Assembly: GCA_964354495.1 (NCBI GenBank)
Contig: CAYHAA010000003.1
Span: 1-32,000, forward strand
DNA length: 32,000 nt
Direction: 5' to 3'
DNA from: an uncultured archaeon
GTDB lineage: Archaea > Asgardarchaeota > Thorarchaeia > Thorarchaeales > Thorarchaeaceae
Shown: positions 1,152 to 16,933 of the stretch, in pieces
Layout: each line of letters starts with the position of its first letter
How positions within the stretch are numbered: the stretch's first letter is position 1
The notes under the pieces: model-generated
What the model saw: only the letters and a program-made list of their open reading frames with translations
Databases searched by the model: none
Told to the model about the DNA's origin: nothing
Program-made: the position numbers and the translations under genes

Positions 1152-1886
1152 ATGAAGGAAGCAAAGAAGATCTTCAAGACTGCACTTGCAGAGGGCAGAA
1201 CATTCGTTCTGGAACATGAAGCCAAAGACATAATGAGAGCCTACGGTATTCCGGTACCTCCATACAGCACAGCCACAACTGCTGATGAAGCCGTAGCCAA
1301 GGCGAAGGATATCGGGTTTCCAGTGGTACTGAAGATTCTCTCCAAGGATATCTTGCACAAGTCTGATGCTGGTGGGGTCAAGATCAATCTCAAGAGTGTA
1401 GGCGAGGTCCGAAAGGCGTTCAATGAGATAATAGAAAATGCAAAGAACTATGGTCGTGAGAAAGGAATCGATGTGGACCTAAGCCGGGGTGTTTTCGTTT
1501 CTGACTTTGCAGATATGGGAACTGAGATTATTGTGGGTGTCACCAAAGACCCACAGTTCGGCCACGCACTGATGGTCGGACTCGGAGGAATATTCGTTGA
1601 AGTCCTCAAAGATGTATCCTTCAGATTGATTCCATTCACCGAATCTGACGCAAGAGAGATGCTGAAAGAACTCAAGGCGTACAAGATACTGGAGGGGATA
1701 CGAGGTGAGGCGCCCAGAGATGTGGATGCCTTGGTCAAGATTATGCTCTCAGTGTCAAAGATGGTTGAAGAGAATCCGGAAATCACTGAGCTGGACTGCA
1801 ATCCAACCTTTGTGTACAAGGTTGGAGAGGGTGCTCTTGTGGTCGACGCTCGAATTTTAATTGACAATCCAAACAAGAAAGGCTAG
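1152..1886 (+). CDS. acdB: Acetate/acyl-CoA ligase (ADP-forming) beta subunit (ATP-grasp)
   Basis: LEHEAKDIMRAYGIPVP, GFPVVLKILS..ILHKSDAGGV, EIIVGVTKDPQFG, ELDCNP, VDARI. Confidence 0.92.
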   Translation: MKEAKKIFKTALAEGRTFVLEHEAKDIMRAYGIPVPPYSTATTADEAVAKAKDIGFPVVLKILSKDILHKSDAGGVKINLKSVGEVRKAFNEIIENAKNYGREKGIDVDLSRGVFVSDFADMGTEIIVGVTKDPQFGHALMVGLGGIFVEVLKDVSFRLIPFTESDAREMLKELKAYKILEGIRGEAPRDVDALVKIMLSVSKMVEENPEITELDCNPTFVYKVGEGALVVDARILIDNPNKKG

Positions 1887-3079
1887 CCGCTAATCAGAGC
1901 ATAGAGAAGAATTAGCCCTCGTTTCAAATCAGAGTCCTCAAGAGGCGCTGCAGGGGACTCCGTTGTCTTGCTTGCTAAGAGAAGAAGCAATGCTGTTATT
2001 CGTGGCACCAGTCGTGCGTATTGCAGTAAGAAGTCCTTGTTTCCGGTCGAATCGACAATCAGGCTCTCTAGTCTTCTCGTGATGAATTGAATTCGCTCAT
2101 CAACGCCGTTGGCTGGACGCAGACCCTTGAAGATAGTGACCGCCGAAGACGCGTCTTTAAGAAAATCAGAGGACACGCCGACTCTCTCTATAATCTCCAT
2201 TGATCCGATAATGATAGACTCGTAGTGTTCTTCCTCTAGTCTATCAAGCTTCTGCTTGACTCCCTGAAGCTGTCCAAGCAGTTTTAGTGAGTTAGTCAAT
2301 ATTGAACGAGAGGCACCAGAGGTGGCAACTGCCAGCTTCCCAAGATAGTCGCTGTGAACTCTCTCAAGATTGGCAGCAACTGATGCATTTAGCTTCTTCT
2401 CAAAACCCGGAGAGAATGCCACTCTTGCGGCAAGAGGGAGAACAGGATGAGTTCCAAGTTTCCTTATCGCAGTCAGTGCCTTGTAGTCATTTGCGTCAAC
2501 ATAGAAGAGAAGAATGCGGGTAGTATCATATGCGGTTTCAAAATCATCCTCGGTCGTGACATTTCTGCCTTGACTCTTGCATGCAAAGGCGCAGAGAAGA
2601 ACCCATGTGGACAGCATGTCATTGCAGAGACTCTCCATCTCCTTCTGATTTCCAACCTCGTGCTCTTCAAGAAAACGCGATAGCTTTTCGGTGGCTGCTG
2701 AAATTCGCTGGAGCGTGTTCCCGCCCACACTGAGGTCTGCGATTGATTTGATGAAACTTCGGGCGTCACGGGAGGCAGGTCTGAGGATGAGCACGGGGTC
2801 CTGTCGAGTGACCGTCCACCATTTTGATGTAGAGGTGAGATAGTCGAGCAAATCAACGGCAAGAGTAACATCGGATTGGCCCGCAGTGGTTCTCGAATTG
2901 AGATGTGCATTCAATCGAGTAATCAATCGGAGGAACCTTGTGACATGAACGGAGAGTTTCTCACCTGCAAAGACACAATCTGTAAATCTGGCAACGATTG
3001 AATCGACCTGCGATTGTATACCATCCTCGAGCTGAGTTTTCACAAGACTACGGTACACATCAACTGGAGTTCTTGCCAA
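1883..3079 (-). CDS. Hypothetical protein with about four tandem AAA+ lid-like helical repeats
   Basis: 398-aa ORF with no P-loop. Recurring units such as LRLITRLNAHLNSRTTAGQSDVTLAVDLL and VLLCAFACKSQGRNVTTEDDFETAY. The repeat interpretation is by eye only. Confidence 0.6.
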   Translation of the reverse strand: MARTPVDVYRSLVKTQLEDGIQSQVDSIVARFTDCVFAGEKLSVHVTRFLRLITRLNAHLNSRTTAGQSDVTLAVDLLDYLTSTSKWWTVTRQDPVLILRPASRDARSFIKSIADLSVGGNTLQRISAATEKLSRFLEEHEVGNQKEMESLCNDMLSTWVLLCAFACKSQGRNVTTEDDFETAYDTTRILLFYVDANDYKALTAIRKLGTHPVLPLAARVAFSPGFEKKLNASVAANLERVHSDYLGKLAVATSGASRSILTNSLKLLGQLQGVKQKLDRLEEEHYESIIIGSMEIIERVGVSSDFLKDASSAVTIFKGLRPANGVDERIQFITRRLESLIVDSTGNKDFLLQYARLVPRITALLLLLASKTTESPAAPLEDSDLKRGLILLYALISG

Positions 3080-3152
3080 CGACGAACTGTCTCCTGCCTA
3101 TGAACCCTGCTGACTTATCTTATAAAAGACTGTGTCATGATGATATGAAACC

Positions 3153-3920
3153 TCATTTTCCATATCTGCGGGATCGCATACCATAGGACCTGAGCGCTCT
3201 CCAGATATCTATCCTTCTCACTGCAGGCCAGTAGATCTGAGCAAAGTATAGCTCAGAGTAGGCAGACTGCCAGAGAAGGAATCCTGAGAGGCGTTCCTCG
3301 CCAGAGGTTCTGATGATGAGGTCAGGATCGGGTATGCCGCTCGTGTAGAGGTTCTCCTCAATCACATCTTCAGTGACTTCAGATGCGCTCATCTGCCCCG
3401 TTTCTATCCTCTCTCCAATGGCTCGCACGGCATCTACAAGCTCGGCTCGCCCCGAGTATCCAATGGCTATGTTGAGAATGTGATCTTTGTAGTCCTTTGT
3501 ATCCTCTTCTGCAGCATGAATCGCATCCTGAACTTCCTTTGGCAAGAGATCCACTCGTCCGATTGCACTGATTCGCACCTTGTGACGATGAACATCTGGG
3601 TTCCCAACGACTTCACGGAATTTCTCCTTGGCCAAACTCATTATCTGATTGACCTCTTCCTTGCTTCGTTGAAAGTTCTCAATCGAAAAGGCATAAATCG
3701 TGCAGACTTTGACATTGGCCTCCCAGAGAATACGAAGCACCTCCAATACTTTGGCAGCCCCCTTCTGATGGCCAAACCAGGGAACTTCCATTCCGTGCTT
3801 CTTCGCATACCTACGATTTCCATCCAAGATTATTCCGACATGCTTGGGTGCGAGCTTCTTGTCTAACTGTCTGTATAGGAAATATTCGTACAGTCTATAG
3901 ACAGGGCCGGCCAAGTTCAA
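3153..3920 (-). CDS. uppS: cis-prenyltransferase (undecaprenyl-diphosphate synthase family)
   Basis: PKHVGIILDGNRRYA, GHQKG, YAFSIENFQRS, PDPDLIIRTSGEERLSGFLLWQSAYSELYF. Confidence 0.96.
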   Translation of the reverse strand: MNLAGPVYRLYEYFLYRQLDKKLAPKHVGIILDGNRRYAKKHGMEVPWFGHQKGAAKVLEVLRILWEANVKVCTIYAFSIENFQRSKEEVNQIMSLAKEKFREVVGNPDVHRHKVRISAIGRVDLLPKEVQDAIHAAEEDTKDYKDHILNIAIGYSGRAELVDAVRAIGERIETGQMSASEVTEDVIEENLYTSGIPDPDLIIRTSGEERLSGFLLWQSAYSELYFAQIYWPAVRRIDIWRALRSYGMRSRRYGK

Positions 3921-3994
3921 TTAGTAACACTCTCTGCAGTGAGAGTATCTGAAAAATGACCCCTAATAGAGTTGACGTTGTTTGAGCAAGTGTT

Positions 3995-4366
3995 CTAGAT
4001 CATCTGAGCAATCTTCTCAGCAGCTCGCTTCATGTCTAGGAATATGAGCCCGAGTTTTGCATTGGCAGTGGTAGATACTGTTAGGCACGCATTCATACCT
4101 GCCTGAATCACCAGAAGCCAGCCATCCACACCCTTGATATTCACCTGTTCGAGGTTACCCTTTCCAAGCTCGATAGCGGCCTTCTCACCGAGAGTCAACA
4201 TCGCTGCGGTCATAGCAGCAACCTTCGCCTCATCCACATCCGTTGGAAGAGCAGAAACTATCGGGAGTCCTTCAACACTCACAATGGCACAAGCTTCAAT
4301 CTCAGGAATACTTCCCTGTAGTTCATTGAGAACTCCTTCGAGTGTGTTTTCACGGGACTCTCTCAT
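3995..4366 (-). CDS. Roadblock/LC7 (MglB-like) domain protein
   Basis: IEACAIVSVEGLPIVS..DEAKVAAMTAAMLTLGEKAAIELGKGNLEQVNIKG..LGLIFLDMKRAA pattern; 17 nt downstream of mglA. Confidence 0.9.
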   Translation of the reverse strand: MRESRENTLEGVLNELQGSIPEIEACAIVSVEGLPIVSALPTDVDEAKVAAMTAAMLTLGEKAAIELGKGNLEQVNIKGVDGWLLVIQAGMNACLTVSTTANAKLGLIFLDMKRAAEKIAQMI

Positions 4367-4383
4367 CTTGTTTCACCTGTAAT

Positions 4384-4956
4384 TCACTTGTACATCCTTT
4401 TGAGTATGACCTCTCGCGCTATTGCTTGGAACGCCCTTTTAACTCCTACACCTTGGACTGCAATGGTCTCATAGATGGGAACGTTGCCTCCAAGGCCGAG
4501 CAAGTCGAGCATCTCGTCACGCGACATTCTATTGGGTAGGTCTCTCTTGTTGAGCATAACCACTATGGGAATCTCACGCCCTAGAGCGTCTCCTAGGAAC
4601 AGCTTCAACTCTTCAAAACTCTCAGTGTTCTCATCACGTTGATCGGGGGATGAGTCAGCGACAAAGAGAATTCCATCCGTGCCCTGTAGGACGACCTTTC
4701 TCTGATGGCGGTGCCGTTTCTGTCCAGCCACGGTGAACACATCAAAGAGGACACGGCCTCCAGCCGACATCGGAACGTAGTCAAAGAACAGGGTTCTATT
4801 CGTTTCATCCTCAATCGCAGTGAATTCGCCCTTCTGGAGACCCTCCACTTTTCCGTACATCCAACGAAGTGCAGTGGTCTTTCCACCAAGTGAAGGACCA
4901 TAGAATACCAGCTTCAGATGGATTCTGCCCTTGTCATCCTTGCGAATTGCTAACAC
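4384..4956 (-). CDS. mglA: MglA-family small GTPase
   Basis: G1 KLVFYGPSLGGKTT, switch I ETNRTLFFD, G3 TVAGQ, DGILFVADS, G4 NKRD, G5 ETIA. GTG start. Confidence 0.9.
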   Translation of the reverse strand: MLAIRKDDKGRIHLKLVFYGPSLGGKTTALRWMYGKVEGLQKGEFTAIEDETNRTLFFDYVPMSAGGRVLFDVFTVAGQKRHRHQRKVVLQGTDGILFVADSSPDQRDENTESFEELKLFLGDALGREIPIVVMLNKRDLPNRMSRDEMLDLLGLGGNVPIYETIAVQGVGVKRAFQAIAREVILKRMYK

Positions 4957-5189
4957 CTCATTCTTTCACTGCTAGCCCGGACATGTTTCCAGATGGACCT
5001 TGGATTCTTGTCCGAACTGAGGTCCATGTTCTGGGAGGTTTGTTGAGTTAAAAATCTAGCCTAATAAAAGCCTTTGTGGCATAACAGGGCTTCATGGAGG
5101 CAGCCTCAATACAACTCACAGTACATGGTAATATGAACTGAATAGTGATAGCTGTGATTCCTGTTAAATTGTGTGTATTACTTGGAAAT

Positions 5190-5225
5190 TCACACACGTT
5201 CAAGCTGGGCCAGAGCTGATTTAAT
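5190..5225 (-). repeat. Diverged direct-repeat copy of the last 12 codons of the Roadblock gene 5914..6393
   Basis: Minus strand reads ATT AAA TCA GCT CTG GCC CAG CTT GAA CGT GTG TGA (IKSALAQLERV*), versus LKSALAELERV* at 5914-5949; 28/36 nt identical. Confidence 0.85.
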
Positions 5226-5268
5226 AAATGAATAATGTGTCTACAGACGGGAATAGGAGGAATCAAAT

Positions 5269-5871
5269 CTGCATACTCCAGATGCAATAGATGACCTGCA
5301 GACTGGAAAAGACGAGGCGCAGGCAATCCTACGCCCCATTCTGATATCTTTCGGATTGGCAATAATTGGACTAATCTACATACTAACAATTCCTCTCAGA
5401 TGGTTACCCGCTGCCTACCTGATTCCGGGTTACTCACTGGTAATTGTGGGTATAGGAGGACTATTACTCTTAGTGCGTCTGACGGTTCGACGAATATCAC
5501 CAGATACAGAGTTGGATCTCACACTAGCAATTATCAATGCCGCAGGATTTGTGATTCTCCTCTTTCCTCTGACACCAACAAGAGGATACGTGGAGCCGGG
5601 GCAGCCCTTCGGGTTTATACTTGGCTTTCATACCTCATTGTGGCCTCTGTTTGTGGCAGCGGGCGTTTCAGTACTACTAGTCACGAGGTTGTTGAGAAGA
5701 ACTACAGGGCGAGAGAAACCACTCTTCATGATTGCCAGTTTTGTTCTAGGTTTCATTACGATAGCACTATGCTGGTTTCTACTTCCTATTCTGAACGAGA
5801 TAACTCCTTCTCACATTGCAGGACTCGTCATATTCGTTCAAACTCTGATATTGCAGTTGTCTAAGCTTTGA
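5269..5871 (+). CDS. Hypothetical multi-pass membrane protein; start uncertain (CTG 5269 or TTG 5356)
   Basis: About 5-6 hydrophobic segments. Frame open from 5257. AGGAGG at 5255-5260 lies 8 nt before an in-frame CTG at 5269. Confidence 0.65.
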   Translation: MHTPDAIDDLQTGKDEAQAILRPILISFGLAIIGLIYILTIPLRWLPAAYLIPGYSLVIVGIGGLLLLVRLTVRRISPDTELDLTLAIINAAGFVILLFPLTPTRGYVEPGQPFGFILGFHTSLWPLFVAAGVSVLLVTRLLRRTTGREKPLFMIASFVLGFITIALCWFLLPILNEITPSHIAGLVIFVQTLILQLSKL

Positions 5872-5913
5872 GATGCTCTTCCGTGTAGACTTGAAGTGAG
5901 ATGTGAGCGGTTT

Positions 5914-6393
5914 TCAAACACGTTCAAGTTCTGCCAGGGCTGACTTGAGGTCTTCCTCATCAAGCTCGGCATCCTTGGGAGACAATGGCTCTACGGCCAG
6001 GAATTTGGCGAGCTCATCGGCAAGCTGCACGCCCTGTTTCTTCATTACGAGGCGAATCAGACCAATGTTGACCTCTGCCTCCGATACAACACAGAGTACA
6101 CCTTTTCCACAGGCCGAGGCGAAAATCTTGCCCTCTGAGAATTCAGATGTGACTATCTCAAGCTCCCCAATCTGCAGGTTCTTGCCCTGCTCCTCACTTG
6201 CACAGAAGACCGCACTGGCAATGGCTCCGATGCTGTCCACATCCACGGGGTAGTAGGACAACTTGGATACATTGGCAATTGTGAGTCCTGTCTTATCTAC
6301 AAGTATGACCTTCTTGATGCCTTTGTCTTGACGGATGATCTCGGTCAGTATCTTATCGAAGGCTTTTGGATCACTCATTCCAGTAAACTCCAT
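5914..6393 (-). CDS. mglB: Roadblock/LC7 MglB-like protein with acidic C-terminal helix
   Basis: VILVDKTGLTIA..SIGAIASAVFCASEEQGKNLQIGEL..NIGLIRLVMKK core, then the tail AELDEEDLKSALAELERV. Confidence 0.85.
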   Translation of the reverse strand: MEFTGMSDPKAFDKILTEIIRQDKGIKKVILVDKTGLTIANVSKLSYYPVDVDSIGAIASAVFCASEEQGKNLQIGELEIVTSEFSEGKIFASACGKGVLCVVSEAEVNIGLIRLVMKKQGVQLADELAKFLAVEPLSPKDAELDEEDLKSALAELERV

Positions 6394-6693
6394 TCAATCA
6401 TTGTTCTTGAGGACGACTAATATTAGGCCCTCTTTGACTTCCGGTGCGATGTTGATCTGACCCTTATTGGTGTCCAGGGTCAGGAATGACAGCGTCCCCT
6501 CCCGAAGCTCCCTCACTGCGTCGAGGGCTTTACCCACGAGAGAGGTTATGATTGCAGCGACGCTCTCCGTCGTTTCAGGGTCCAGATCACTGCTAAGTGG
6601 AAGACCCTCCATGGTGGTCACCACGACTCCACGAACACCTTCCTGTGCTTTGAGCCTTGACAGGATGGACTGGAGTTTTTCTTGTGTGATCAC
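6394..6693 (-). CDS. Roadblock/LC7 protein (short, dynein light chain roadblock-like)
   Basis: 99 aa; LSRLKAQEGVRGVVVTTMEGLPLSS..EINIAP..LILVVLK-type pattern. Its TGA directly abuts the ATG of the next Roadblock gene. Confidence 0.88.
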   Translation of the reverse strand: MITQEKLQSILSRLKAQEGVRGVVVTTMEGLPLSSDLDPETTESVAAIITSLVGKALDAVRELREGTLSFLTLDTNKGQINIAPEVKEGLILVVLKNND

Positions 6694-6791
6694 CGCACGG
6701 AATCCTCGCTACTTTCAGCTGTGCACTAACAACAACTACGCCGCAGTTGACTATTTTAGACTTGTGGAGATATGTTGCTGTGCGACGTGCA

Positions 6792-6805
6792 AAAATGCGC
6801 ATTTT
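6792..6805. promoter_or_regulatory. Perfect 14-bp palindrome, possible transcription-factor operator
   Basis: AAAATGCGCATTTT, about 100 nt upstream of the Roadblock gene starting at 6693. Confidence 0.35.
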
Positions 6806-6830
6806 GAACTGATATTCCGGTGTGTTACAC

Positions 6831-6868
6831 GGGAAAAGAAGAGAGCCGTGCATCACTTGAGCACGGCT
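6831..6868 (-). terminator. Hairpin plus pyrimidine tract downstream of the Sec23/24-like gene
   Basis: Minus strand AGCCGTGC-TCAAGTGAT-GCACGGCT (8-bp stem, 6844-6868) followed by CTCTTCTTTTCCC, about 30 nt after the stop codon. Confidence 0.6.
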
Positions 6869-6896
6869 GCCCAGTCCACAGATCACTAATGAGGTG

Positions 6897-8525
6897 TCAT
6901 TTCTCATCCTCGTCTTTCTTGAAGAGCGCTTTTGAGCTCCGTTTCATCTGAGCCAAATTCTCAGTGAATGCCTCGTCAGCCGCGCCTGAGGGAGCCGCTG
7001 CAGGATGGGCCTTTAGCATCTCCTCTTGTCGCTGAATCTCCATGTCTTCAGTATTCAAGGCATCATCAGCCTTCTGAAGCATAGCCTGAACGGACTTTGG
7101 AGCCGCCCCTGCTTTTCGTTTCATCGCAGACCTGAAGGATGCTATTCGTTCCCGACCCTTCTCACGTTGACCACTGAACGACTCCTCACCTGCCTTTTGG
7201 GTCACAAAAGTGGCTCCGACAGTTGGATCGAGGGTCGCCATGATTTCGGACTCTTTCTTTGAGACCTTAAGTCTAGTCGTGAGTGCGCGTACTCTTCGAG
7301 CGCCTTCTCCATCGGTGTATGTCACTTGGACTTGGATTGGAACTTCGGATTCTTTGATCTTCGTGTTGGGCTCTACCTCGAAGTAGAGCTCATGGTTTGC
7401 CCCCACCACCCCAATCTTGCTCTCACTCTTTTCCTTCAGAGTGTCGATCACCGCCCTTGATACACCCGAGACATCCTTGATCGAGATGCCAGGCGGAGTC
7501 ACAAGGCGTACCTCAACATCACGGCCCAACATCGAGGCACCAGCAAGTTCAGAGATACTTCGGTCAAGCTCGTTGGGAGTAACGTAGTACATCTGGCCTC
7601 CTGTGGCCTCGGGAAGGAGACCTAGTGTCTTTAGCTCCATGCCTGCGCCTGAGGCAATACCGACAACATCGACCGCGGCTCCAATATCGAGGAACATCTT
7701 TCCCAAATCTTGGTAGTACGTGTTTGCAGGAGTGACCTGATAGCCCTCGAGTGCACCAATTCCCTCATTTGCCAGACCATCAGTCAGGAGTACCACTCTT
7801 CCAACATTACGGTGTTTTGCAATAATGTACGCCATTGCAACTGCAGGACCAAGGGCAGTCCCGCCCTTGTCTCGAAGGGTCTGAATGTGCCCCTTCAACT
7901 TCTTGGCGTTCTCTCCAACGTTAACAAGTCGAATCTTATCGAGGAGACTCTTGGTTGACTCGATGATGGCATCAAGACTAGCAAAGGATGCCTGTGGTAG
8001 TTGTACAGACTCACCGGTCTCCAAGTTTCGAGCGACGATACTACTCTCGAACTCGATGAGACCAAACATCGTTTCCGGAGCGTTTGAGGCAAGACTGTCA
8101 ATGGATGTGTTCAGGCTGCGCTTGACCGCGGCAAGATTGGCGCCGCTCATAGAACCCGAAACGTCGATGAGTGCAAGGAAGGATTTTCCACCTGCAGACA
8201 CGACACCAGTGTCAGAGTCAGTCTTGATTCGTGGCGGTTCCACGACGAAGTCTGTGTCATCTCCCGCAACAACGATCTCGCCTTCAATGATGTTCAGAGT
8301 TCCACAGAATGGACAATAGAAATGCTTGCCAACCTTTGGATCCTCCTGAATCTGATCTACACTGAGTAGGAAACCGTTACACTTGTGACAGGCGATGGGT
8401 TTCCCCACTATCTTGGTCGTTTCATGGGCGAGGTGACTAAACTCTACACGTAGAACATAAGGAATGTCACTCAGAACATCTTTCGACGCTGGAAAGGACT
8501 CTGAGCTAGTTCGCAACATAGGCAT
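6897..8525 (-). CDS. Sec23/Sec24-like protein (zinc finger, vWA trunk, beta-sandwich, helical region)
   Basis: PIACHKC..FYCPFCGTLN zinc finger; vWA motifs FLALIDVSGSM, GGTALG and VVLLTDG; VPIQVQVTYTDGEGARRVRALTTRL resembles the Sec23/24 beta-sandwich. Confidence 0.78.
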   Translation of the reverse strand: MPMLRTSSESFPASKDVLSDIPYVLRVEFSHLAHETTKIVGKPIACHKCNGFLLSVDQIQEDPKVGKHFYCPFCGTLNIIEGEIVVAGDDTDFVVEPPRIKTDSDTGVVSAGGKSFLALIDVSGSMSGANLAAVKRSLNTSIDSLASNAPETMFGLIEFESSIVARNLETGESVQLPQASFASLDAIIESTKSLLDKIRLVNVGENAKKLKGHIQTLRDKGGTALGPAVAMAYIIAKHRNVGRVVLLTDGLANEGIGALEGYQVTPANTYYQDLGKMFLDIGAAVDVVGIASGAGMELKTLGLLPEATGGQMYYVTPNELDRSISELAGASMLGRDVEVRLVTPPGISIKDVSGVSRAVIDTLKEKSESKIGVVGANHELYFEVEPNTKIKESEVPIQVQVTYTDGEGARRVRALTTRLKVSKKESEIMATLDPTVGATFVTQKAGEESFSGQREKGRERIASFRSAMKRKAGAAPKSVQAMLQKADDALNTEDMEIQRQEEMLKAHPAAAPSGAADEAFTENLAQMKRSSKALFKKDEDEK

Positions 8526-8709
8526 GATATATTCGCCTCCAAAATTACTCAGCCATTCTTTGCACGAGGCGTTTTAAGTCAATCGACGACTCTCGCTCTA
8601 TCAAAGATGGGCTAACTCGGCATGTCCATGACCATCACACAAGATATATAGACTCCAGCACTCAAGACCGAGATAGTCATTCGAGACCTCCAAGGAGGAT
8701 AACACGTAG

Positions 8710-9081
8710 ATGGTGGATCAGGCTAAGATTGAACAGGTTGTTGCGGAAACCATGGCTAGTAATGCCGAACTTCAGGGCATAATCGTCTGTGATGCAAGGG
8801 GCAAGGTGCTCTTTGGACATACAATCACAGGGGGAATCAAGCACTCTGATGTTGCCGACCTTGCAGTGAAGATTGCATCCAACTCCTCTCAGCTGGCAGC
8901 TGGGCTCGATAAGGGTGGTCTCAGAGAAGTGAGTATAGCAGCTGACCATGGCCTTGTTATAATCCTAGGCGACGTGAAGCTTGTGATGGCCGCAGTAGCT
9001 GGAGAGGGCGCTCGAGAGTCTATGGGACTGCTTAAGATGGCTCTTCGGCGTTCATTACTCTCTATCCTAGGGAAGAAGTGA
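8710..9081 (+). CDS. Roadblock/LC7-like protein
   Basis: LQGIIVCDARGKVLF..LDKGGLREVSIAADHGLVII..MGLLKMALRR pattern; GGAGG at 8695-8699; TATA-like GATATATA near 8643-8650. Confidence 0.72.
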   Translation: MVDQAKIEQVVAETMASNAELQGIIVCDARGKVLFGHTITGGIKHSDVADLAVKIASNSSQLAAGLDKGGLREVSIAADHGLVIILGDVKLVMAAVAGEGARESMGLLKMALRRSLLSILGKK

Positions 9082-9248
9082 AACTTAGGCCACCAGAGTT
9101 ACACTTTTCTGTCCTTTGTTGAATTGAACACAGGACGTATAGACCAATATCTACATGTAGCTTAGGTATTACTCTGGTCATACCAACGGTATTCAGGACT
9201 GTGTAACATCCCAATAACACATAACCTGACACACCTGAATGACCGAAT

Positions 9249-12200
9249 TTGCCGGGAAGGTTGCGAGACTTGGTACACATCGAGAAGCTAGTATGCAAGG
9301 GCTTCAAATCATTTGGCCGAGACTCTGTCACCATCAAATTCAATCCTGGCTTCACGTGCATTGTTGGTCCAAACGGCTCGGGCAAGTCAAATGTCGTAGA
9401 CGCCATTCTCTTCGTTTTAGGACAACTCAGTGCCAAGACTCTGCGTGCAACAGTCTTCTCGGATTTGCTCTACTCGCCACCAAAGCCAAACATGCCACCG
9501 AAAGCAAAGTCTGCAACAGTTGAGCTGCATTTCGATAATACTGACAGAAAACTGCAGATTGATGCCGATAGGGTGGTCATTGAGAGAGAACTGGATGATA
9601 CAGGCAAGTCTGTCTGTCGTATAAACAACAAGACTGTAACCAGAGGTGCTGTCATCGATGTGCTTGGTGCTGTTGGGGTGGATCCAAACGGGTACAACCT
9701 TGTGCTTCAGGGCGAGATCGCTCAGATGGTGAAGGTAAGCCCCGCCGAGCGACGAAAGATGATTGAGGAGATTGCGGGCATCTCCGCATATGATGAACAA
9801 AAGGAGCGAGCTCTCAAGAAACTGGCAGAGAGCGAGAGTAATCTGGGAAAGGTTGATGCTCAATTACAGGAACGTCGGCGCCAACTTGAGAAACTGCAAG
9901 AAGAACGGTCGGATGCCCTCCGCCACAAAGGAATGAATGCCCAGATACAGAAGCACAGAATCGACATACTTGCCTGGAGCATAATCAAGGGCAGACTCAG
10001 AATAGATGCCATTAAGGAGACTCTCACTGAGAGAGCAGAGGAGGCAAGCAATCTTGCAAAGGAACTTGTCGAAGTTGAAACGGGAATCACTGCGACGGAC
10101 ATAGAGATTGATACTATCGACCATGACATAGACCAGATAACGGGAGGAGACTCTGCTAAGATATCAGAGCAATATGGTATAGTTTCTGCTGCAGTGAGCC
10201 ATGTTCGCTCCAATCTTGAGCGTGCACAGGCAGAGCATGATAGAGCCAGTAGTGAAAAGACCGGGTTACTCAAGGAGTTAGGGTCTGTCCAGAGTGAGAT
10301 GAGCAATAATGAACGCCTCATGAAAGGAAAGATAGAGCAGTTTGACAAGCTCGAGAAGGAGATATCGAGCACAGCAGCTCAAGTCATACGTCTTGAGGAG
10401 ATGTCGGAGAAGGAACAGGCTGCCTATTACGAAACAACTCTCCGCTTGCAGGATCTGAGTACCCAGCTTCGAGCCCTAGACGAGGGAGTTTCGGAGATAC
10501 GCTCATCAATAAAATCTGATAATAGGGAACTTGGACTTGCCTATGAAGAGTCTAGAGACTCCACTGATGGTCTTGAGAAGGCAGAACAGGACCTGAAGGA
10601 GCTGAAACAAGTCATTCCTGAAAGACGGCAAGTGCTAGAGAAAGACGAAGCGCTGGAAGAGTCCAAGAAGAAGAAGTATGAGGAGGTCACTGGCCACCTT
10701 ACAACCGTTGATGCGGAGGTGGATGAGAGTGCACATATCGTGGCGTCGACAAGAGAAGAACTGATTAGAGTTCAGGCTCGCCAAGATGCTCTCAAGGAGG
10801 CAGAGGACGCGTTCTTGAAGAAGCAACGCGCAATTGCCAAGGTGTTGAAGCTAAGGGATAGTGGGGAGATTGGTGGAATCCATGGTACTGTCGCTGAGCT
10901 AGGTACAATAGACCCGGACTATGCGGTCGCGATGGAGATAGCAGGAGGCAGCAGACTATCGTATATTATCGTCGAGAACGATGATACAGCAACAGCATGT
11001 GTAGAGATCTTGAAACGTGATAGAGTGGGGCGAGCGTCGTTCATTCCACTTGATAAGATTAAGACCCAGCCACCAAAGAAGCTACCAACTGATAATGGAG
11101 TCATAGATTTCGCACTGAACCTGGTCAAATTTGAACCAAGGATGCGACCAGCCTTTGAATTCGTGTTCTCTGACACCATAGTGACAAAGGGATTCGACAC
11201 TGCTAAGCGCCTTGGTTTCCGAGGTCAGCGCGCAGTATCGCTCGAAGGAGACCTCATAGAGCGGTCAGGCCTAATGACTGGAGGACACTACCAGAGAGGT
11301 GGAGGAGGTCTCTCGCTTCAGGTAGAAGACACTAGCCCAGAGATAGCGAAACGGCTTCAGGGACTTGAAGATATTCTCACAGATTTGAGGAGTAAGCAGA
11401 GCGTCCTACGAGATGAGAAGAGAACTCTGGAGAGAGAACTCCAAGAACTATCTAAGTCGAACTACCGCGCAAGGCTGGAACTGGAAAAGCTCGAAGACCG
11501 GATGGATGAACAAGAGAATAGGTCAAAGACACTACAGGAGAGAATCAAGAAAGCCAGTCTGACGATAGAAGAGCTTGAAACCCAAATCAAAAGCCTTCAG
11601 GTACGTGATGAGGAACTCACGGTTCAACGCGAGAGAGTCATGGCGCAGCGTGATCAGTGCAACGAAGACCTCACAAAATCCGATTCTGCGAAGCTCTACC
11701 AAGACACTAGGGATCTGAAGCAAGTCCAAGAACAATATCAGAAACAGCGAGAGAAACTTCAGAGCGAGATCACATCTTTGAGAGTCGCTCTCGATGAGCG
11801 GCTTGGCCCGAAGGCAATTGAGATAGAGTCGAAGATTCAGGCACATGACTCAATACTTCCAGGTCTCGAAGAAGAGGTCAAGAGGCATGAACTAGGACTG
11901 GAAGAGAGAGAGAACGAATTCCTCAAGCTGAAGGAGAAACGGGAACAAATCGATGAGGCAGTGAAGGACAAGAGGGTACATCAGCTTGAACTGAAAGAAA
12001 CTGTGAGGAATTACAGACTACGTCACGAGGAGATTCGAGAGGCTCAGACCTCAAATGAGAAGGCAGTCTACAGGTTGCAGACGGAACAGAATCGTCTAGA
12101 GACCGATATTGTTGGATTTGCTGCAGACTTGGAAACCCACACCGCAGTTGATGAGGCACTCGAAGAGAGAAAGGATGCAAGGGAACCTACCTATCGGGAG

Positions 12201-12860
12201 TTGGAAGAACGCGATGAGAAGATCAAAGAGATAGAGAGAGAGCTCGAGGCGATGGGACCTGTCAACCTGAAATCACTCACAGACTATGATCTTGAACGGG
12301 AGAAATATGATGAGATTGTAGACAAGAAGACCAAATTGGAGGAAGAGCGAAAGGAGATTCTTGCGTTCATGGAGGAACTGGAAGCAGAAAAGACTCAGAA
12401 ATTCCTCACGGTCTACAATGATATTGCAGACAACTTTGCAAAGGTCTTCGCGAAACTCTCTCCAGGTGGTGAAGGCAATCTCATGCTTGAGAACCCCGAA
12501 TATCCACTGATGGGCGGTATCACTGTAAGGTCAAAACCGCTTGGCAAGGACCTTGTGACACTTGATGCAATGAGCGGTGGTGAGAAGACTCTCACTGGCC
12601 TCGCCCTGATCTTTGCAATTCAGATGTACAATCCTTCGACCTTCTATGTGTTCGATGAGATTGATGCAGCACTGGACAATGTGAATGCTCACAATGTCGC
12701 GCAGCTTATTTCGGAGATGTCAAAATCATCACAGTTCATTGTAGTATCCCTCAGGGACACGACCGTTCGAAAGGCGGATCTTCTTGTTGGTGTAGCCAAC
12801 CAAGATGGAATTTCGAGGATAGTATCTGTTGATCTGGAGGAGGTCGGAGCTGAAACATGA
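9249..12860 (+). CDS. smc: Chromosome segregation protein SMC (start may be TTG 9270)
   Basis: KGFKSF, Walker A GPNGSGKSN, long coiled coils, hinge (GIHGTVAEL..GRASFIPLD..SLEGD), signature MSGGEK, Walker B/D-loop FDEIDAALD. Confidence 0.98.
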   Translation: MPGRLRDLVHIEKLVCKGFKSFGRDSVTIKFNPGFTCIVGPNGSGKSNVVDAILFVLGQLSAKTLRATVFSDLLYSPPKPNMPPKAKSATVELHFDNTDRKLQIDADRVVIERELDDTGKSVCRINNKTVTRGAVIDVLGAVGVDPNGYNLVLQGEIAQMVKVSPAERRKMIEEIAGISAYDEQKERALKKLAESESNLGKVDAQLQERRRQLEKLQEERSDALRHKGMNAQIQKHRIDILAWSIIKGRLRIDAIKETLTERAEEASNLAKELVEVETGITATDIEIDTIDHDIDQITGGDSAKISEQYGIVSAAVSHVRSNLERAQAEHDRASSEKTGLLKELGSVQSEMSNNERLMKGKIEQFDKLEKEISSTAAQVIRLEEMSEKEQAAYYETTLRLQDLSTQLRALDEGVSEIRSSIKSDNRELGLAYEESRDSTDGLEKAEQDLKELKQVIPERRQVLEKDEALEESKKKKYEEVTGHLTTVDAEVDESAHIVASTREELIRVQARQDALKEAEDAFLKKQRAIAKVLKLRDSGEIGGIHGTVAELGTIDPDYAVAMEIAGGSRLSYIIVENDDTATACVEILKRDRVGRASFIPLDKIKTQPPKKLPTDNGVIDFALNLVKFEPRMRPAFEFVFSDTIVTKGFDTAKRLGFRGQRAVSLEGDLIERSGLMTGGHYQRGGGGLSLQVEDTSPEIAKRLQGLEDILTDLRSKQSVLRDEKRTLERELQELSKSNYRARLELEKLEDRMDEQENRSKTLQERIKKASLTIEELETQIKSLQVRDEELTVQRERVMAQRDQCNEDLTKSDSAKLYQDTRDLKQVQEQYQKQREKLQSEITSLRVALDERLGPKAIEIESKIQAHDSILPGLEEEVKRHELGLEERENEFLKLKEKREQIDEAVKDKRVHQLELKETVRNYRLRHEEIREAQTSNEKAVYRLQTEQNRLETDIVGFAADLETHTAVDEALEERKDAREPTYRELEERDEKIKEIERELEAMGPVNLKSLTDYDLEREKYDEIVDKKTKLEEERKEILAFMEELEAEKTQKFLTVYNDIADNFAKVFAKLSPGGEGNLMLENPEYPLMGGITVRSKPLGKDLVTLDAMSGGEKTLTGLALIFAIQMYNPSTFYVFDEIDAALDNVNAHNVAQLISEMSKSSQFIVVSLRDTTVRKADLLVGVANQDGISRIVSVDLEEVGAET

Positions 12861-13567
12861 TGGATGATGATGCTCCATTCTGGGCAACACCCCCCTACAT
12901 CCTCCTCACAGATGTCCTTCAACTGGACAAGGTAGAACCATGGAATGTCGATGTAGGAAAACTGGTTGTTGGATTCCTCACCGAGATGAAACGATTAGGT
13001 GATATTGATTTTCGCATTTCAGGAAATGCGCTCTACTCAGCATCCGTCATCTTCATGCGAAAAACACGAGAGCTTGTGCAGCTTGGTGTTCTTCCGCCTA
13101 GCGAAGATGGTGATAATGGAGAGCTTGAGATTCCACTCATCAGGCCGCCCTTCAGACTCACTAATAGACGTGTCACGCTCGAAGAACTGCTCGTTGCCAT
13201 GGATCTTGTCCTGAGCAAGGGAACAAGAGAACGGCTCGCCCCCACGAGACAGAAATATCGGGGTAAGGCAGACCCGTTGACCTTCTCAATGGATTCAGAC
13301 CAAGCAAACATTGAGGAAACTATTGCGGAAGTCTACGAGGACCTCCAGAGAATCGTGAAGATAGGCGAAATCGTCAAGTTCACCGATACACTCATGAATC
13401 ACACTCGCAAAGAGATTGTTCGAGTGTTCTTTTCTCTATTGTTTCTGTATGCCAGAAGTTTCATTGATATCTGGATGGAAGAGGATAACACAATCATGTT
13501 GAAGATACGCGAACCTCCCCAAATCAAAGAGGAGGAGGAAGCGGAAAAGCCCGAGATAAGACGGTAA
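12857..13567 (+). CDS. scpA: Segregation and condensation protein A (kleisin)
   Basis: EPWNVDVGKL, SGNALYSAS..MRKT, RRVTLEELL, C-terminal VRVFFSLLFL; ATGA overlap with smc. Confidence 0.92.
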   Translation: MMDDDAPFWATPPYILLTDVLQLDKVEPWNVDVGKLVVGFLTEMKRLGDIDFRISGNALYSASVIFMRKTRELVQLGVLPPSEDGDNGELEIPLIRPPFRLTNRRVTLEELLVAMDLVLSKGTRERLAPTRQKYRGKADPLTFSMDSDQANIEETIAEVYEDLQRIVKIGEIVKFTDTLMNHTRKEIVRVFFSLLFLYARSFIDIWMEEDNTIMLKIREPPQIKEEEEAEKPEIRR

Positions 13568-13577
13568 GGCGACGAAC

Positions 13578-14132
13578 GTGGACGAAGACATGATTACACT
13601 TGAGGCAGCGCTCTATGTCAGTGGCAGGGCACTGACACTTGAGGAGTTGTCCGATCTCATCGGTAAGTCACAATCGACAACACAGAAGATACTAGATAAT
13701 CTTGGATTCGAGTATAACCAGAGAGAGGGAGCGCTTGAGGTGGTGGCTCTTCCTCGAGATCGCTATGCAATGCAGCTGAAGCCGGAACTGACTCCTAGGG
13801 TAGGCAAGCTGATACCCGGGGGACTTCTCTCATTCGCAACACTGCAGACACTTGTCTTCATAGCCCTAAAACAGCCTATAATGCAGTCAGATCTTGTGAC
13901 ACAGAGAGGAACCCATTGTTATGACCATGTGAAAGAGCTGATTGAGAAGAAATTCATCGAGTCCGCACCTGAGGGGAGATCCAGACTCTTGACAACAACT
14001 CCTCTCTTCGCCGACTACTTTGGTCTGGACAGCGATAGAGTAAAGCTGAAGGCACAACTGAAATTCAAGATGAAGAAGATTTTTGAAGACCAAGGACAGG
14101 CGGGAGTATCAGAGGCTCAGGATGTCCTCTAG
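13578..14132 (+). CDS. scpB: Segregation and condensation protein B
   Basis: LEAALYVSG, TLVFIALKQPI, HVKELIEKKFI, TTPLFADYFGL; follows scpA. Confidence 0.95.
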   Translation: MDEDMITLEAALYVSGRALTLEELSDLIGKSQSTTQKILDNLGFEYNQREGALEVVALPRDRYAMQLKPELTPRVGKLIPGGLLSFATLQTLVFIALKQPIMQSDLVTQRGTHCYDHVKELIEKKFIESAPEGRSRLLTTTPLFADYFGLDSDRVKLKAQLKFKMKKIFEDQGQAGVSEAQDVL

Positions 14133-15142
14133 CAGACGCGAGGTACCGGCTCACCATATGGTACTTGAATCACCTTTCTTCCACCAATTGCAGTCTTCAA
14201 TAGAACTCTTGGAGGGCCCTTCCTTATTGTTCCAACGACCCGCGCATCCTTTGTGGTGGCATGCTTTTGAAGAACGGATATGATATCGTCAGTCCTGCTG
14301 GAGTCCACCGCCATCACAGCTCTTCCCTCACTACTCATATGTAGAGGGTTCAGACCAAGAACATCACAGAGGGACTGAACAGCTGGGCGTACGGGAATCT
14401 CGGCTTCTTTTAGCTCCATCTCCAATTTGGATTTGGAGGCAATCTCGTTCAATGCAACTGCAGTACCGCCCCTTGTTGGGTCTTTCATAGCATGAACACC
14501 GCCGACATCTAGACAGCCGCGGATTGGTTCCCAGAGAGGAGCCACATCACTAGTCAAGCTCGTTTCGAATTCCAGGCCCTCTCGATGTGCTAGAAGGACA
14601 GTCCCATGGTCTCCTATTGGTCCAGTGATTATGATGTCATCATTCGGTTGAGCACCACTATCAGACACGGGATGGTCAAGATAGACCTCGCCTATACCCG
14701 TCGTTGATATCACCAGTCCATCAAGTGTTCCTGGCGGCATGACTTTTGTATCACCAGCAATCATCGCAATACCGAGGGGCTCAATGATTGCGTTCAATGA
14801 CTTTAGAATGGCCTGAAGAGTTTCAATCTCCATACCCTCTTCAATGATTACCGTGTTTGTCATTGCCACAGGCCGTGCACCCATCACAGCAAGGTCGTTG
14901 ACAGTCCCACAGGCACTCAATGTACCCAGATTGCCGCCCGGGAAGAAGATAGGATGCACAGTATGTGCATCAGTGGTCACTATCAGATTGTGGCTCTGTA
15001 CTTGGAGAGTTGCTCCATCATCCATTTCATCAAGACCGATTGAACCTATCTTTCTCAGGCCAAACGATGGAATGACAATCTCTTCAAGCAATCGTTGCAT
15101 AATCCTTCCGCCAGCTCCATGAGCGGACTCAATCTTGGCCAT
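14129..15142 (-). CDS. hypE: Hydrogenase maturation protein HypE
   Basis: AHGAGG, TTDAHTVHPIFFPGGNLG, CGTVNDLAVMGA, MKDPTRGG, C-terminal PRVC ending in the reactive Cys. Confidence 0.97.
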   Translation of the reverse strand: MAKIESAHGAGGRIMQRLLEEIVIPSFGLRKIGSIGLDEMDDGATLQVQSHNLIVTTDAHTVHPIFFPGGNLGTLSACGTVNDLAVMGARPVAMTNTVIIEEGMEIETLQAILKSLNAIIEPLGIAMIAGDTKVMPPGTLDGLVISTTGIGEVYLDHPVSDSGAQPNDDIIITGPIGDHGTVLLAHREGLEFETSLTSDVAPLWEPIRGCLDVGGVHAMKDPTRGGTAVALNEIASKSKLEMELKEAEIPVRPAVQSLCDVLGLNPLHMSSEGRAVMAVDSSRTDDIISVLQKHATTKDARVVGTIRKGPPRVLLKTAIGGRKVIQVPYGEPVPRVC

Positions 15143-15246
15143 GTATTATCCTCCGATAGTAGTGTGTTTCAGGACTCGTTTCCGATGTATTTGAAGGGGA
15201 CTATCCGGACGTTGCGGAGAGTCAAGGAGTTCGCCACTAAGTAAGA

Positions 15247-15253
15247 TTTAAAA
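15247..15253 (+). promoter_or_regulatory. Probable TATA box of rps8e
   Basis: TTTAAAA about 47 nt upstream of the ATG at 15300. Confidence 0.5.
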
Positions 15254-15299
15254 CCACTCCACAGCGTGCGTCACTGAACAAATAAAGAGGTAGTCCGAA

Positions 15300-15677
15300 A
15301 TGGCCATCTGGCACTCAAGGTCCAATCGTACAAACACCGGAGCACGAATAAAGCGATTCAGAAGCAAAAGGAAGTATGAGATGGGCCGCACTCCTACTGA
15401 GACCCTCATGGGTGACGTCATGAGGAAAACGATAGATAGCAAGGGCAAGTCGAAGAAGCGACCAGCCTTTAGAGTGAAATATGTCAACGTGACTGATCCA
15501 AACAAGGCCGTCACTTTTCGTGCCGAAATCCAAGATGTTGAGATGAACCCCGCTAATATGGACTACCAGCGCAGAAAGGTCATCACGAGAGGCACAATCA
15601 TCAAGACGACCAAGGGTCGAGCCAAGGTGACAAGCCGTCCTGGTCAAGACGGTATACTCAATGCAATTCTGATCTAA
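15300..15677 (+). CDS. rps8e: 30S ribosomal protein S8e
   Basis: RKYEMGRTPTET, NPANMDYQRRKVITRGTII, AKVTSRPGQDGILNAILI. Confidence 0.97.
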   Translation: MAIWHSRSNRTNTGARIKRFRSKRKYEMGRTPTETLMGDVMRKTIDSKGKSKKRPAFRVKYVNVTDPNKAVTFRAEIQDVEMNPANMDYQRRKVITRGTIIKTTKGRAKVTSRPGQDGILNAILI

Positions 15678-15709
15678 TCGGACCAAAGTTGGTCTAGACC
15701 AATTTCACT

Positions 15710-16840: not shown

Positions 16841-16933
16841 GAAACTACTTCGGAGTTGACTATGGCATAGCTCCGCTTATATTGTCGGAGTTGCCGTAGT
16901 ACACATAATATCTGAACCCAAGAGCTGACAAAG

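Follow-up and report, generated by a model that had tools for sequence, protein, structure and literature searches.

A single-gene cassette bordered by an orphan copy of a Roadblock gene end in a variable slot of a Thorarchaeota GTPase locus

In bacterial pangenomes, transfer hotspots hold many unrelated gene sets between core genes while the neighbouring intervals stay constant. In Campbell-type insertion-duplication, as with a suicide vector, the insert ends up between two copies of the homologous segment, each a donor/recipient hybrid. In Streptococcus thermophilus, islands related to ICESt1 and ICESt3 at the 3' end of the fda gene comprise CIMEs and display tandem accretion (PMC5704250). 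Integrated elements with short att motifs in archaea, including Asgard archaea, span 8-40 kb, carry tyrosine integrases and in many cases lie at tRNA genes or AT-rich motifs (PMC11529989, PMC7253208); for instance, those of the Asgard lineage Atabeyarchaeia use an 11-bp att sequence (PMC11529989), and tRNA genes are the targets of SSV-type integrases (PMC7253208). The window analysed here, 32,000 nt of a contig from an uncultured Thorarchaeaceae archaeon (CAYHAA010000003.1, positions 1 to 32,000), contains an insertion of 724 bp (5190-5913) with one membrane-protein gene and a diverged second copy of the 3' end of the Roadblock gene next to which it lies.

The insertion sits in a eukaryote-like gene cluster of Asgard archaea, composed of an Arf/MglA-type GTPase, four Roadblock proteins and a Sec23/24-like protein. 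The nearest relative of the genome is the Thorarchaeota MAG OWC2 (G012), collinear over ~30 kb at 93% identity. The parts of the locus are the following:

4384..4956, minus strand: Arf/MglA-like small GTPase gene, lower flank of the slot (Pfam Arf 5e-14, Ras 7e-8)
4957..5189: resident intergenic region, 93.5% identical to OWC2 over 232 nt
5062-5079: conserved promoter-like motif for the GTPase, with a putative TATA-like box on the minus strand
5166-5176: conserved motif AAATTGTGTGT, ~20 nt downstream of the Roadblock stop in empty-site genomes
5190..5225, minus strand: orphan (lower) copy of the Roadblock 3' end, IKSALAQLERV and stop; putative foreign arm
5195..5205 and 5919-5929: 11-nt core ACACGTTCAAG, the same in both copies; likely crossover interval
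5220..5229, plus strand: TATA-like TTTAATAAAT over the end of the orphan copy, as read from the letters
5256-5260: GGAGG after the TATA-like box
5257..5871, plus strand: cargo membrane-protein open frame of 204 codons (ORF list)
5872..5913: 42-nt foreign spacer from cargo stop to Roadblock stop (convergent genes)
5914..5949, minus strand: upper copy, the functional last 11 codons and stop of the Roadblock gene; putative resident arm
5914-6393, minus strand: Roadblock gene, 159 aa (Pfam Robl_LC7)
6394..6693, minus strand: second Roadblock gene, abutting the first; conserved upper flank (Pfam)
6897-8525: Sec23/24-like gene, next after the second Roadblock gene in the upper flank

The 159-aa Roadblock protein matches PF03259 at 1.6e-9, above the curated cut-off, and thus contains a Robl_LC7 domain; the GTPase protein is 95-99% identical in 19 same-genus genomes, and the spacing of the second Roadblock gene is constant in relatives. 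An Rfam search of 4300-6700 returned no match and a tRNA search of the window none either. The spacer at 5872-5913 lacks a counterpart in OWC2 and in the slot of any other genome, and TTTAATAAAT together with GGAGG could possibly serve as promoter and ribosome-binding site of the cargo gene. The low GC content reported by the initial annotation for 5041-5220 stands as a figure (0.40 over 5000-5199), but not as a mark of foreign DNA, since 5041-5189 is the promoter region of the resident GTPase and is also present in the empty-site relative OWC2; the insert itself has an unremarkable GC of 0.453, the 16th percentile of 724-nt windows of the genome.

Positions 5190-5225 and 5914-5949 form a direct repeat with 28 of 36 bases identical and the stop codon within both copies, figures that our recount of the initial annotation returned unchanged, and an automated repeat search of the window gave 5189-5222 against 5913-5946 at 82%. 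Read on the minus strand, the lower copy encodes IKSALAQLERV and the upper one LKSALAELERV, each followed by the stop, and the codon positions of the 8 mismatches are 1,3,3,3,3,1,3,3, again agreeing with the earlier split into six third, two first and no second positions. The in-frame stop five codons upstream of the lower copy is a TAG (cta on the plus strand, 5241-5243), and the 688 bp between the copies hold the one opposite-strand membrane gene described before, in the plus-strand frame 5257-5871. No other pair of direct 36-mers less than 1 kb apart reaches at least 28 matches in the window, and block shuffles of the window (n=20) gave a mean of 0.05 such pairs. A chance similarity could draw on the fact that a 28/36 match alone turns up in about one of 20 shuffled windows; the repeat, however, matches the borders of the insertion relative to OWC2 base for base and keeps register with the stop codon and the reading frame. 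A chance origin is improbable given the uniqueness of the pair, the shuffle mean and the coincidence of the borders, and the assembly artefact that had been feared can be dismissed because two independent contigs from two studies run gapless through both copies and the insert (Logan contigs X1, 2144 nt at 96% identity, and X5, 1568 nt at 98.4% identity). Further contigs (X7) cover the locus only in fragments, raw reads of X23 gave no alignment to it, and the contigs aligned to it held neither joints nor loose ends that would bear on excision. Taken together, we assign chance or an assembly chimera a next to negligible probability.

In OWC2 the site is empty, with a single Roadblock tail directly adjoined by the counterpart of 4957-5189. 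OWC2 aligns to window positions 1692-5222 and 5918-19999, the two pieces overlapping by 29 nt at the repeat, and the insertion there is the sole large insertion or deletion between both genomes in 30 kb. The alignment across relatives proposed by the initial annotation thus yielded both an empty site and, in other genomes, different cargo between the same flanks, and the empty site with its single tail bears out the claim that the repeat brackets an insertion. Which of the copies lies nearer to insert-free orthologs, a second test proposed there, was likewise determined: the upper copy matches the OWC2 tail at 33/36 and the orphan copy at 27/36. As the upper copy is the nearer one, the Roadblock-attached copy is by this comparison resident, and the orphan beside the resident intergenic DNA foreign, which overturns the earlier idea that an incoming 3' end displaced the resident one on the gene. 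Nor is the C-terminal helix of the Roadblock protein swapped, as had been suggested, since filled and empty states both encode LKSALAELERV, a peptide identical in 58 of 72 orthologs, and any exchange in the gene would be limited to its last 4 bases at most.

The orphan matches 24-29 of 36 bases in the tails of the 72 orthologs, none of them exactly, and resembles the gene end that an ortholog of another lineage would have. Its mismatch pattern (6/2/0 at codon positions 3/1/2) shows that it diverged as coding sequence, as the initial annotation had held for both copies; differences among true ortholog tails are distributed 76/18/6% over the same positions. These data bear on duplication in place, in which the second copy would derive from the target-site duplication of a transposition-like insertion, or from a tandem Roadblock paralog now reduced to a remnant, and would have diverged at the site. 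Direct repeats flanking the insert would fit such an origin, Roadblock genes are multi-copy at the locus, and at another locus of the genome (C3:41225-42970) a tail homology of more than 126 nt extends past the stop and looks like a decayed paralog. However, the copies here differ from each other by 22% while the flanks differ from OWC2 by 5-7%, and beyond 36 nt the homology ends and no more Roadblock sequence follows. Synonymous bias also speaks against random decay, under which at least 6 of 8 mismatches at third positions have p ~0.02; pooling the six loci with orphan tails described below gives 30/9/5 mismatches at codon positions 3/1/2 (chi-square p ~5e-6). A transposon or insertion-sequence target-site duplication was rejected, with no transposase family in the cargo (Pfam), no terminal inverted repeats at the borders (repeat search), and a repeat that is 36 nt long, 22% diverged and synonymously biased. 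We therefore consider duplication in place very improbable.

The cargo frame encodes a protein with 5-6 hydrophobic segments by hydropathy and hence 5-6 predicted transmembrane helices. Its homologs (59-66% identity) reside at unrelated loci in three genomes (G011, G020, G013) and on one metagenome contig, and all begin with MQAPE; the window has a CTG (5269) where they have ATG, its first canonical start being a TTG at 5356. The protein has no family in Pfam or Atlas and no match in the viral contig collection, and the metagenome homolog (66%) lies among the membrane genes of an unrelated cluster, where no Roadblock tail is close by. The cargo belongs to an orphan Thorarchaeota family. None of the other genomes of the genus carries it in the Roadblock-GTPase slot, and a common ancestral array for this cargo and that of the next relative (G006) was dropped, the two being linked only as distant paralogs (26% identity). 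As a probable recent, lineage-specific passenger, the membrane gene should not be read as part of the Roadblock/GTPase machinery.

The slot, defined as the interval from the Roadblock stop codon to the promoter of the Arf-like GTPase, is hypervariable. Among 78 Thorarchaeota loci ~45 are empty, and ~25 genomes are filled with ~18 different gene sets; within the genus, 6 of 19 genomes are empty and 13 hold differing cargo, in support of the variable cassette slot that the initial annotation had envisaged in the GTPase locus. On a Sec23 tree the empty state is widespread, the window groups with an empty genome as its sister, and its next relative contains unrelated cargo in the slot. As a control, neighbouring intergenic regions of similar size (Sec23-Robl99 and Sec23-Robl123b) are constant in the same genomes. 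With these properties the slot ranks among horizontal-transfer hotspots between core genes. The integrase noted as missing from the cassette is indeed missing there, and Pfam searches of one representative for each of ~20 ORF clusters from ~18 cargo sets found neither integrase nor transposase.

In several filled slots elsewhere, diverged duplications of a similar kind lie about this stop codon. They were found around the Roadblock stop in G008, G003, G022 and G010; G013 retains, at the border of the intergenic region, the decayed remains of a tail, and G018 and G001 possess an internal copy of tail plus intergenic DNA between cassettes. The remnants of G013, G018 and G001 are visible only with ortholog tails or a profile; a tail-peptide scan of the slots of other genomes, allowing up to 3 substitutions, returned the window's copy only, and a DNA scan of the slots with each genome's own tail was negative save for the window. 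Junctions in other genomes range from ~-38 to +85 around the stop codon, a scatter that reveals no single fixed site. On contig C391 of G020, which is a mosaic of regions from several places, a second Roadblock tail fragment of 104-125 nt was observed with cargo encoding a Zn-ribbon, a 98-aa and a 310-aa protein.

Such tail copies are not confined to the Roadblock gene. A genome-wide scan detected 11 tail repeats with at least 27/36 matches against 1 with reversed tails, and six of the 11 are orphan copies behind cargo, at the Roadblock locus and at five more genes. Four of these are conserved (NrdD, EtfA, a carboxyltransferase and an acyl-CoA dehydrogenase), and the fifth encodes 219 residues without family. 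At NrdD all 8 differences of the orphan tail are synonymous. The NrdD and EtfA slots vary among relatives, with orphan copies common across the genus, and in G003 NrdD is followed by a multi-cassette array in the order NrdD, ORF, copy, ORF, copy. Across loci the repeats measure ~20 to >126 nt, with no common crossover point shown. A 10-residue match of the tail peptide in a 1630-aa ORF (contig C31) had no DNA similarity and was judged to be chance. The site at the Roadblock gene is probably one of several recombination-prone gene ends in the genus.

With slightly better than even confidence, we propose that 5190-5913 is a single-gene cassette that entered where the 159-aa Roadblock gene ends in its stop codon, via a Campbell-type crossover. 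A small circular DNA or circularised fragment would have arrived from another Thorarchaeota lineage, carrying the membrane gene and ~36 nt from the Roadblock 3' end of the donor lineage. A single reciprocal crossover with the resident tail, in or beside the 11-nt core, would then produce the order of gene with resident tail, cargo, foreign orphan tail and resident intergenic DNA, and at other gene ends one-gene cassettes sometimes stand in arrays, with a tail copy after each. The OWC2 tail resembles the lower copy left of the core and the upper copy right of it, although the crossover is placed by a single informative base to the left and seven to the right. Within this reading, we lean moderately towards short-homology recombination by the host, and consider an unlinked site-specific recombinase the less probable, though still substantial, option. 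A point against is that a 36-nt arm at 78% identity with a perfect core of 11-16 nt makes a poor substrate for ordinary homologous recombination. Furthermore, no donor lineage came to light with IKSALAQLERV as functional tail or with the cargo gene beside its Roadblock gene (the closest homologs of the cargo being at other loci and 59-66% identical), neither a circular nor an excised form was observed, and the predicted circle or attP-like joint (upper-left flank, core and lower-right arm) was absent as a DNA pattern from the genome and viral contig collections.

The same mechanism might have run in the opposite direction, the cassette predating the split from OWC2, which then lost it by recombination between the copies. 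Whether the window lineage gained the cassette or OWC2 lost it precisely, the expected hybrid tail is the same, and that of OWC2 is indeed the hybrid expected from a deletion between the repeats; moreover, the strains behind X1 and X5, at 96-98% identity, also hold the insert, and the genus-wide orphan copies of NrdD and EtfA demonstrate that such structures can persist. Yet the cargo occurs in this slot in no other genome of the genus, the empty state is widespread while the next relative has unrelated cargo, and an intact, in-frame, ortholog-like orphan copy agrees with a recent arrival. We thus regard a loss in OWC2 as rather unlikely.

PF00589, the tyrosine recombinase family, has no match in this 97.7%-complete genome nor in OWC2, and no intI-type recombinase was detected beside the platform. 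Only two serine recombinases are encoded, both small (201 aa) and away from the cassette. An attC-like hairpin in the tail copies was considered and found unsupported: nine copies folded as DNA gave z-scores of -0.8 to +0.4 with one exception at -2.3, and the borders have no inverted repeats. The initial annotation's proposal of an att-like scar in a variable slot is largely right, and its direct-repeat bracket and empty site endure, but an action of integrase is not borne out, no tyrosine recombinase being detectable in either genome or in the ~18 cargo sets.

A decayed, CIME-like integrative element would have an attP that mimics the Roadblock 3' end and a recombinase located elsewhere or lost, so that cargo and two att sites remain and elements accreting in tandem at the att site would form arrays. 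This accords with direct repeats whose ends coincide exactly with a conserved gene's stop codon and which share an identical core, with the NrdD array of G003, where each ORF has its own tail copy, and the copies between cassettes in G018 and G001, with several different conserved target genes, and with the accretion scheme of streptococcal elements (PMC5704250); tyrosine recombinases do occur in the genus, if sporadically (8 of 28 genomes, mostly on short contigs). Against it stand the lack of any integrase or integrase fragment in the scanned cargo ORFs, the absence of PF00589 matches noted above, the variable repeat lengths and junctions, and the tiny size of the cassettes (0.5-4 kb). We judge such an element unlikely, though not remote.

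Beyond the single event, we advance with considerable reserve, and as rather improbable at present, that Thorarchaeota of this genus possess an undescribed gene-cassette system, in which small recombinase-free cassettes, many with only one gene, accumulate at the stop-codon ends of conserved genes (Roadblock, NrdD, EtfA, carboxyltransferase, acyl-CoA dehydrogenase) in integron-like arrays, a coding-like copy of the target tail coming after each. Its driver may be a recombinase outside the recognised families or an unusually permissive short-homology pathway of the host. The cassettes are marked by ortholog-like tail copies, have no visible recombinase and occupy several platforms in one genome. 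If a dedicated enzyme is responsible, this would represent a new archaeal counterpart of integrons or of att-site accretion; if host recombination is, very short and diverged homology would suffice for gene capture. Either way, orphan tail copies could serve as markers for gene flow between uncultured Asgard lineages, and cassettes at conserved gene ends offer a concrete, testable route by which Thorarchaeota may gain orphan genes.

How does this locus, finally, relate to systems already described? Its layout is that of Campbell-type integration, in that the repeat stops where the homology of donor and recipient stops, namely at the stop codon, but the event here is natural and the arm is very short and 78% identical. 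As in bacterial transfer hotspots, one interval holds many unrelated gene sets between constant neighbours; in contrast to these, the borders carry ortholog-like copies of the end of the upstream gene, which suggests a specific recombination route beyond mere tolerance of insertions. Archaeal and Asgard att elements likewise have a short identical core at both ends and filled and empty alleles in close relatives, whereas the target here is the coding end of a protein gene and the element contains no recombinase. Integron arrays are similar in their platform fixed beside a conserved gene, in the one short repeat after each single-ORF cassette, and in cargo that is mostly of unknown function, but they differ in their intI-type recombinase; besides, the cargo orientation here is mixed and the repeats are coding ends of host genes with no hairpin signal instead of structured attC sites. 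The resemblance to CIMEs and accretion comprises a conserved gene whose 3' end is the insertion point, flanking direct repeats that include this gene end, cargo without integration genes, arrays parted by repeat copies, and empty sites in relatives. Unlike those islands, however, the cassettes described here reside in an archaeal host, are 0.5-4 kb in size and often consist of one orphan gene, and are bordered by repeats of ~78% identity and variable length, with no cognate integrase or parent element found in the slot, the genome or its sister.

The 159-aa Roadblock gene and the Arf/MglA-like GTPase gene of this Thorarchaeota MAG (3.30 Mb, 51 contigs, 97.7% complete) are 957 bp apart, versus 188-233 bp in relatives in which the interval between them (hereafter the slot) is empty. 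A 724-bp cassette (5190-5913) occupies the slot, and the locus is arranged as follows:

6897-8525, minus strand: Sec23/24-like gene
6394-6693, minus strand: 99-aa Roadblock gene
5914-6393, minus strand: 159-aa Roadblock gene, with an acidic C-terminal helix
5257-5871, plus strand: cargo frame of 204 codons, 5-6 TM segments predicted
4384-4956, minus strand: Arf/MglA-like GTPase
3995-4366, minus strand: third Roadblock gene
beyond the third Roadblock gene in gene order, minus strand: UPP synthase

As the initial annotation had described, the last 11 codons and stop of the 159-aa gene (gene-attached copy, 5914-5949) recur in direct orientation as an orphan copy (5190-5225), with 28 of 36 positions identical and the stop codons in register. 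Six of the mismatches fall at codon position 3 and two at position 1, an in-frame stop lies 5 codons upstream of the orphan copy, and the 688 bp between the copies contain one plus-strand membrane-protein frame. No second pair of this kind occurs within the window, and shuffles yield 0.05 per window. Since Logan contigs from two different studies (sequencing runs X1 and X5) traverse both copies gap-free, at 96% and 98.4% identity, the repeat is real and not an assembly artefact.

The closest genome, MAG OWC2 (contig PRDH01000006), aligns collinearly with the window for 30 kb (93% identity) apart from one interruption: it lacks the insert, and window positions 1692-5222 and 5918-19999 align to adjoining OWC2 stretches that overlap by 29 nt, which are the repeat. 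To the left of the orphan copy, OWC2 tracks the resident intergenic DNA (93.5% identical) up to an 11-nt core, ACACGTTCAAG, and from this core onward it tracks the gene-attached copy (alignment A1). Of the eight positions that distinguish the two copies, OWC2 shares seven with the gene-attached copy and only one with the orphan; this one falls on the stop-codon side of the core. The resident tail is hence the gene-attached one (33/36 identical to that of OWC2), and in the orphan (27/36 overall) at least the 21 gene-proximal nt are foreign. The incoming segment had been suggested to displace the resident 3' end and to swap the C-terminal helix of the Roadblock protein; instead, the orphan is the foreign arm, and exchange within the gene reached its last four bases at most, with no change to the protein.

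The suggestion that both copies evolved as coding sequence fared better. Mismatches of the orphan (75% at position 3) are distributed like those among orthologs (76/18/6% at codon positions 3/1/2), its identity to any of 72 ortholog tails is 24-29/36, and true ortholog tails diverge from each other about as much, which shows that the orphan diverged under coding constraint. A target-site duplication, or a local copy decayed in place, is unlikely, because random decay would put at least six of eight mismatches at position 3 with a probability of ~0.02 by our own calculation, and because divergence is 22% between the copies but only 5-7% between the flanks and OWC2. The tail peptide LKSALAELER also occurs inside a 1630-aa ORF on another contig of the genome (C31:10002-10034), next to a 225-aa ORF of no known family; the DNA is dissimilar and the match is probably due to chance.

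Of 19 same-genus genomes, 6 have an empty slot and 13 a filled one, and the cargo is not the same from genome to genome, comprising unrelated small membrane proteins, a DUF6487 zinc-ribbon protein, a 390-aa protein without known identity, a SAM methyltransferase with a TetR regulator, a radical SAM/SPASM enzyme, a deoxynucleoside kinase, and a pair of 310-aa and 98-aa proteins. Across 78 Thorarchaeota loci, ~45 are empty (132-300 bp) and ~25 are filled with ~18 cargo sets, which include a CLC channel, an arrestin-like protein and a NosD-like protein; no integrase or transposase family was found in the slot cargo ORFs scanned with Pfam. Because two other ~200-bp intergenic regions of the neighbourhood are constant in the same genomes, the slot is specifically unstable, more than a tolerant spacer. 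A phylogeny of the adjacent Sec23-like gene places the window and the empty OWC2 as sisters, and the empty state is present across all clades. As the cargo is unique to the window lineage and the empty state widespread, gain in this lineage is more parsimonious than loss in OWC2 through recombination between the repeats, which predicts the same hybrid tail and is the less likely of the two.

No Pfam or Atlas family was found for the cargo protein, and the GC content of the insert is host-like. Three genus members and one metagenome contig have homologs (59-66% identity) at unrelated loci. These four all begin at an ATG (MQAPE...), where the window has CTG (5269-5271), and its first canonical start is a TTG at 5356, 29 codons downstream and within the first predicted TM segment. 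The gene may hence be weakly translated, shortened, recently disabled or dying. A TATA-like TTTAATAAAT at 5220-5229, overlapping the end of the orphan copy, and a GGAGG upstream of the CTG are putative expression signals. At L044 (G020:C188, 2328-2404), one homolog lies ~290 nt from a tRNA-Gly(TCC) gene, and its neighbourhood and that of the homolog in genome G011 have a conserved non-coding stretch in common; members of this family may reside in other mobile contexts.

When an empty-site profile (last 90 nt of the Roadblock gene, stop codon, intergenic region and first 30 nt of the GTPase gene) was searched against filled loci, many turned out to carry part of the site twice, once on either side of the cargo and in diverged form (profile positions; G and L numbers denote related genomes and slot loci):

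window: 59-98
G013: 53-98, with a decayed tail remnant LELERV* exactly at the intergenic border
G018 and G001: internal tail-plus-intergenic copy separating two cassettes
G008, G003 and L060: 98 to about 155-176
G022: 80-154
G010: 80-305

The stop codon lies inside or abuts most duplicated segments; their ends vary, and no single fixed crossover point emerges across the filled loci. In G010 (L097, L038), a duplication of the entire intergenic region, together with a diverged fragment of the GTPase 5' end, flanks the cargo; over 84 nt of the promoter portion the copies are 98.8% identical, and the arrangement mirrors the Roadblock-tail duplication in the window. G020 contig C391, otherwise a mosaic of other regions, holds a second, truncated Roadblock 3' end of about 104-125 nt (L129:6919-7028 and neighbours). 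Next to it lie a zinc-ribbon gene and both cargo genes (98 and 310 aa) known from the G010 slot; this stretch may belong to a long cassette array, or may be a slot segment that was transposed.

A new and unexpected extension of the Roadblock case came from a scan of the source genome, in which each of 2733 ORFs (150 aa or longer) was compared with the 5 kb downstream of it for a second occurrence of its final 33 nt and stop. At a threshold of 27/36, 11 matches were obtained versus one with reversed tails, itself a run-of-N artefact. Six loci remain once a run-of-N match, two tandem paralogs and two antisense artefacts are set aside; in each, an orphan tail copy ends on an in-register stop codon behind 0.7-4 kb of cargo. 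Five of the six lie outside the window (C, contigs of the source genome):

Roadblock gene: window 5914-6393, copy 5190-5225
NrdD: C1:228371-230200, copy 230935-230970, all 8 differences synonymous
EtfA: C23:4395-5594, copy 7203-7238
carboxyltransferase: C10:105413-109992 (whole span)
acyl-CoA dehydrogenase: C34:7368-10919 (whole span)
219-aa gene: C3:41225-41884, span to 42970

The five copies outside the window each cover at least the final 33 nt plus stop. The copies are coding-like, with pooled mismatches of 30/9/5 at codon positions 3/1/2, and no common hairpin was found among those examined. The NrdD and EtfA slots of relatives also carry orphan copies, with other cargo; that of NrdD in G003 is an array of one-gene cassettes with a tail copy after each (NrdD, 179-aa ORF, copy, 260-aa ORF, copy, 172-aa ORF, and onward). 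Separately, window 18833-19016, overlapping an intergenic region, and C3:40911-41033 belong to a repeat family whose members measure about 110-180 nt; OWC2 has 5 copies (76-85% identity) and G007 as many as 17. The family looks like a dispersed repeat or multi-copy RNA rather than a unique gene.

We propose that a circular molecule bearing a tail copy would recombine once, reciprocally, with the chromosomal tail, leaving the gene with its resident tail, the cargo, the foreign tail and the resident flank. The circle would derive, as a circularised fragment, from a lineage whose orthologous gene had the cargo downstream of it; this origin would explain the ortholog-like orphan, the repeats stopping at the stop codon (where between-lineage homology ends), their varying lengths, and the lack of a recombinase travelling with the cargo. 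Host recombination is favoured as the driver, since no tyrosine recombinase (PF00589) was detectable in the source genome (97.7% complete) or OWC2, and only 8 of 28 genus genomes have one (19 of the 27 relatives do not); a Xer-type recombinase thus appears not to be a core gene in the genus. An unlinked site-specific enzyme nevertheless stays in play, given the short, 78%-identical repeat arm and the array structure of the cassettes. The source genome encodes two 201-aa serine recombinases, on C22 and C24.

Homologous exchange between lineages may also move the filled slot: in the X1 and X5 strains the insert and Roadblock side (5033-6600) are ~1.6-2.4% diverged from the window, versus ~10% on the GTPase side (4400-5045), and these contig mismatch counts suggest that a recombination breakpoint lies within the GTPase promoter region, at about position 5040. 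The initial reading of an att-like, variable slot is largely right, save for the foreign nature of the orphan arm, the unswapped C-terminal helix and the integrase action, which is unproven. Repeat-bounded cassettes at gene ends are of a known kind, encountered here in an Asgard lineage.
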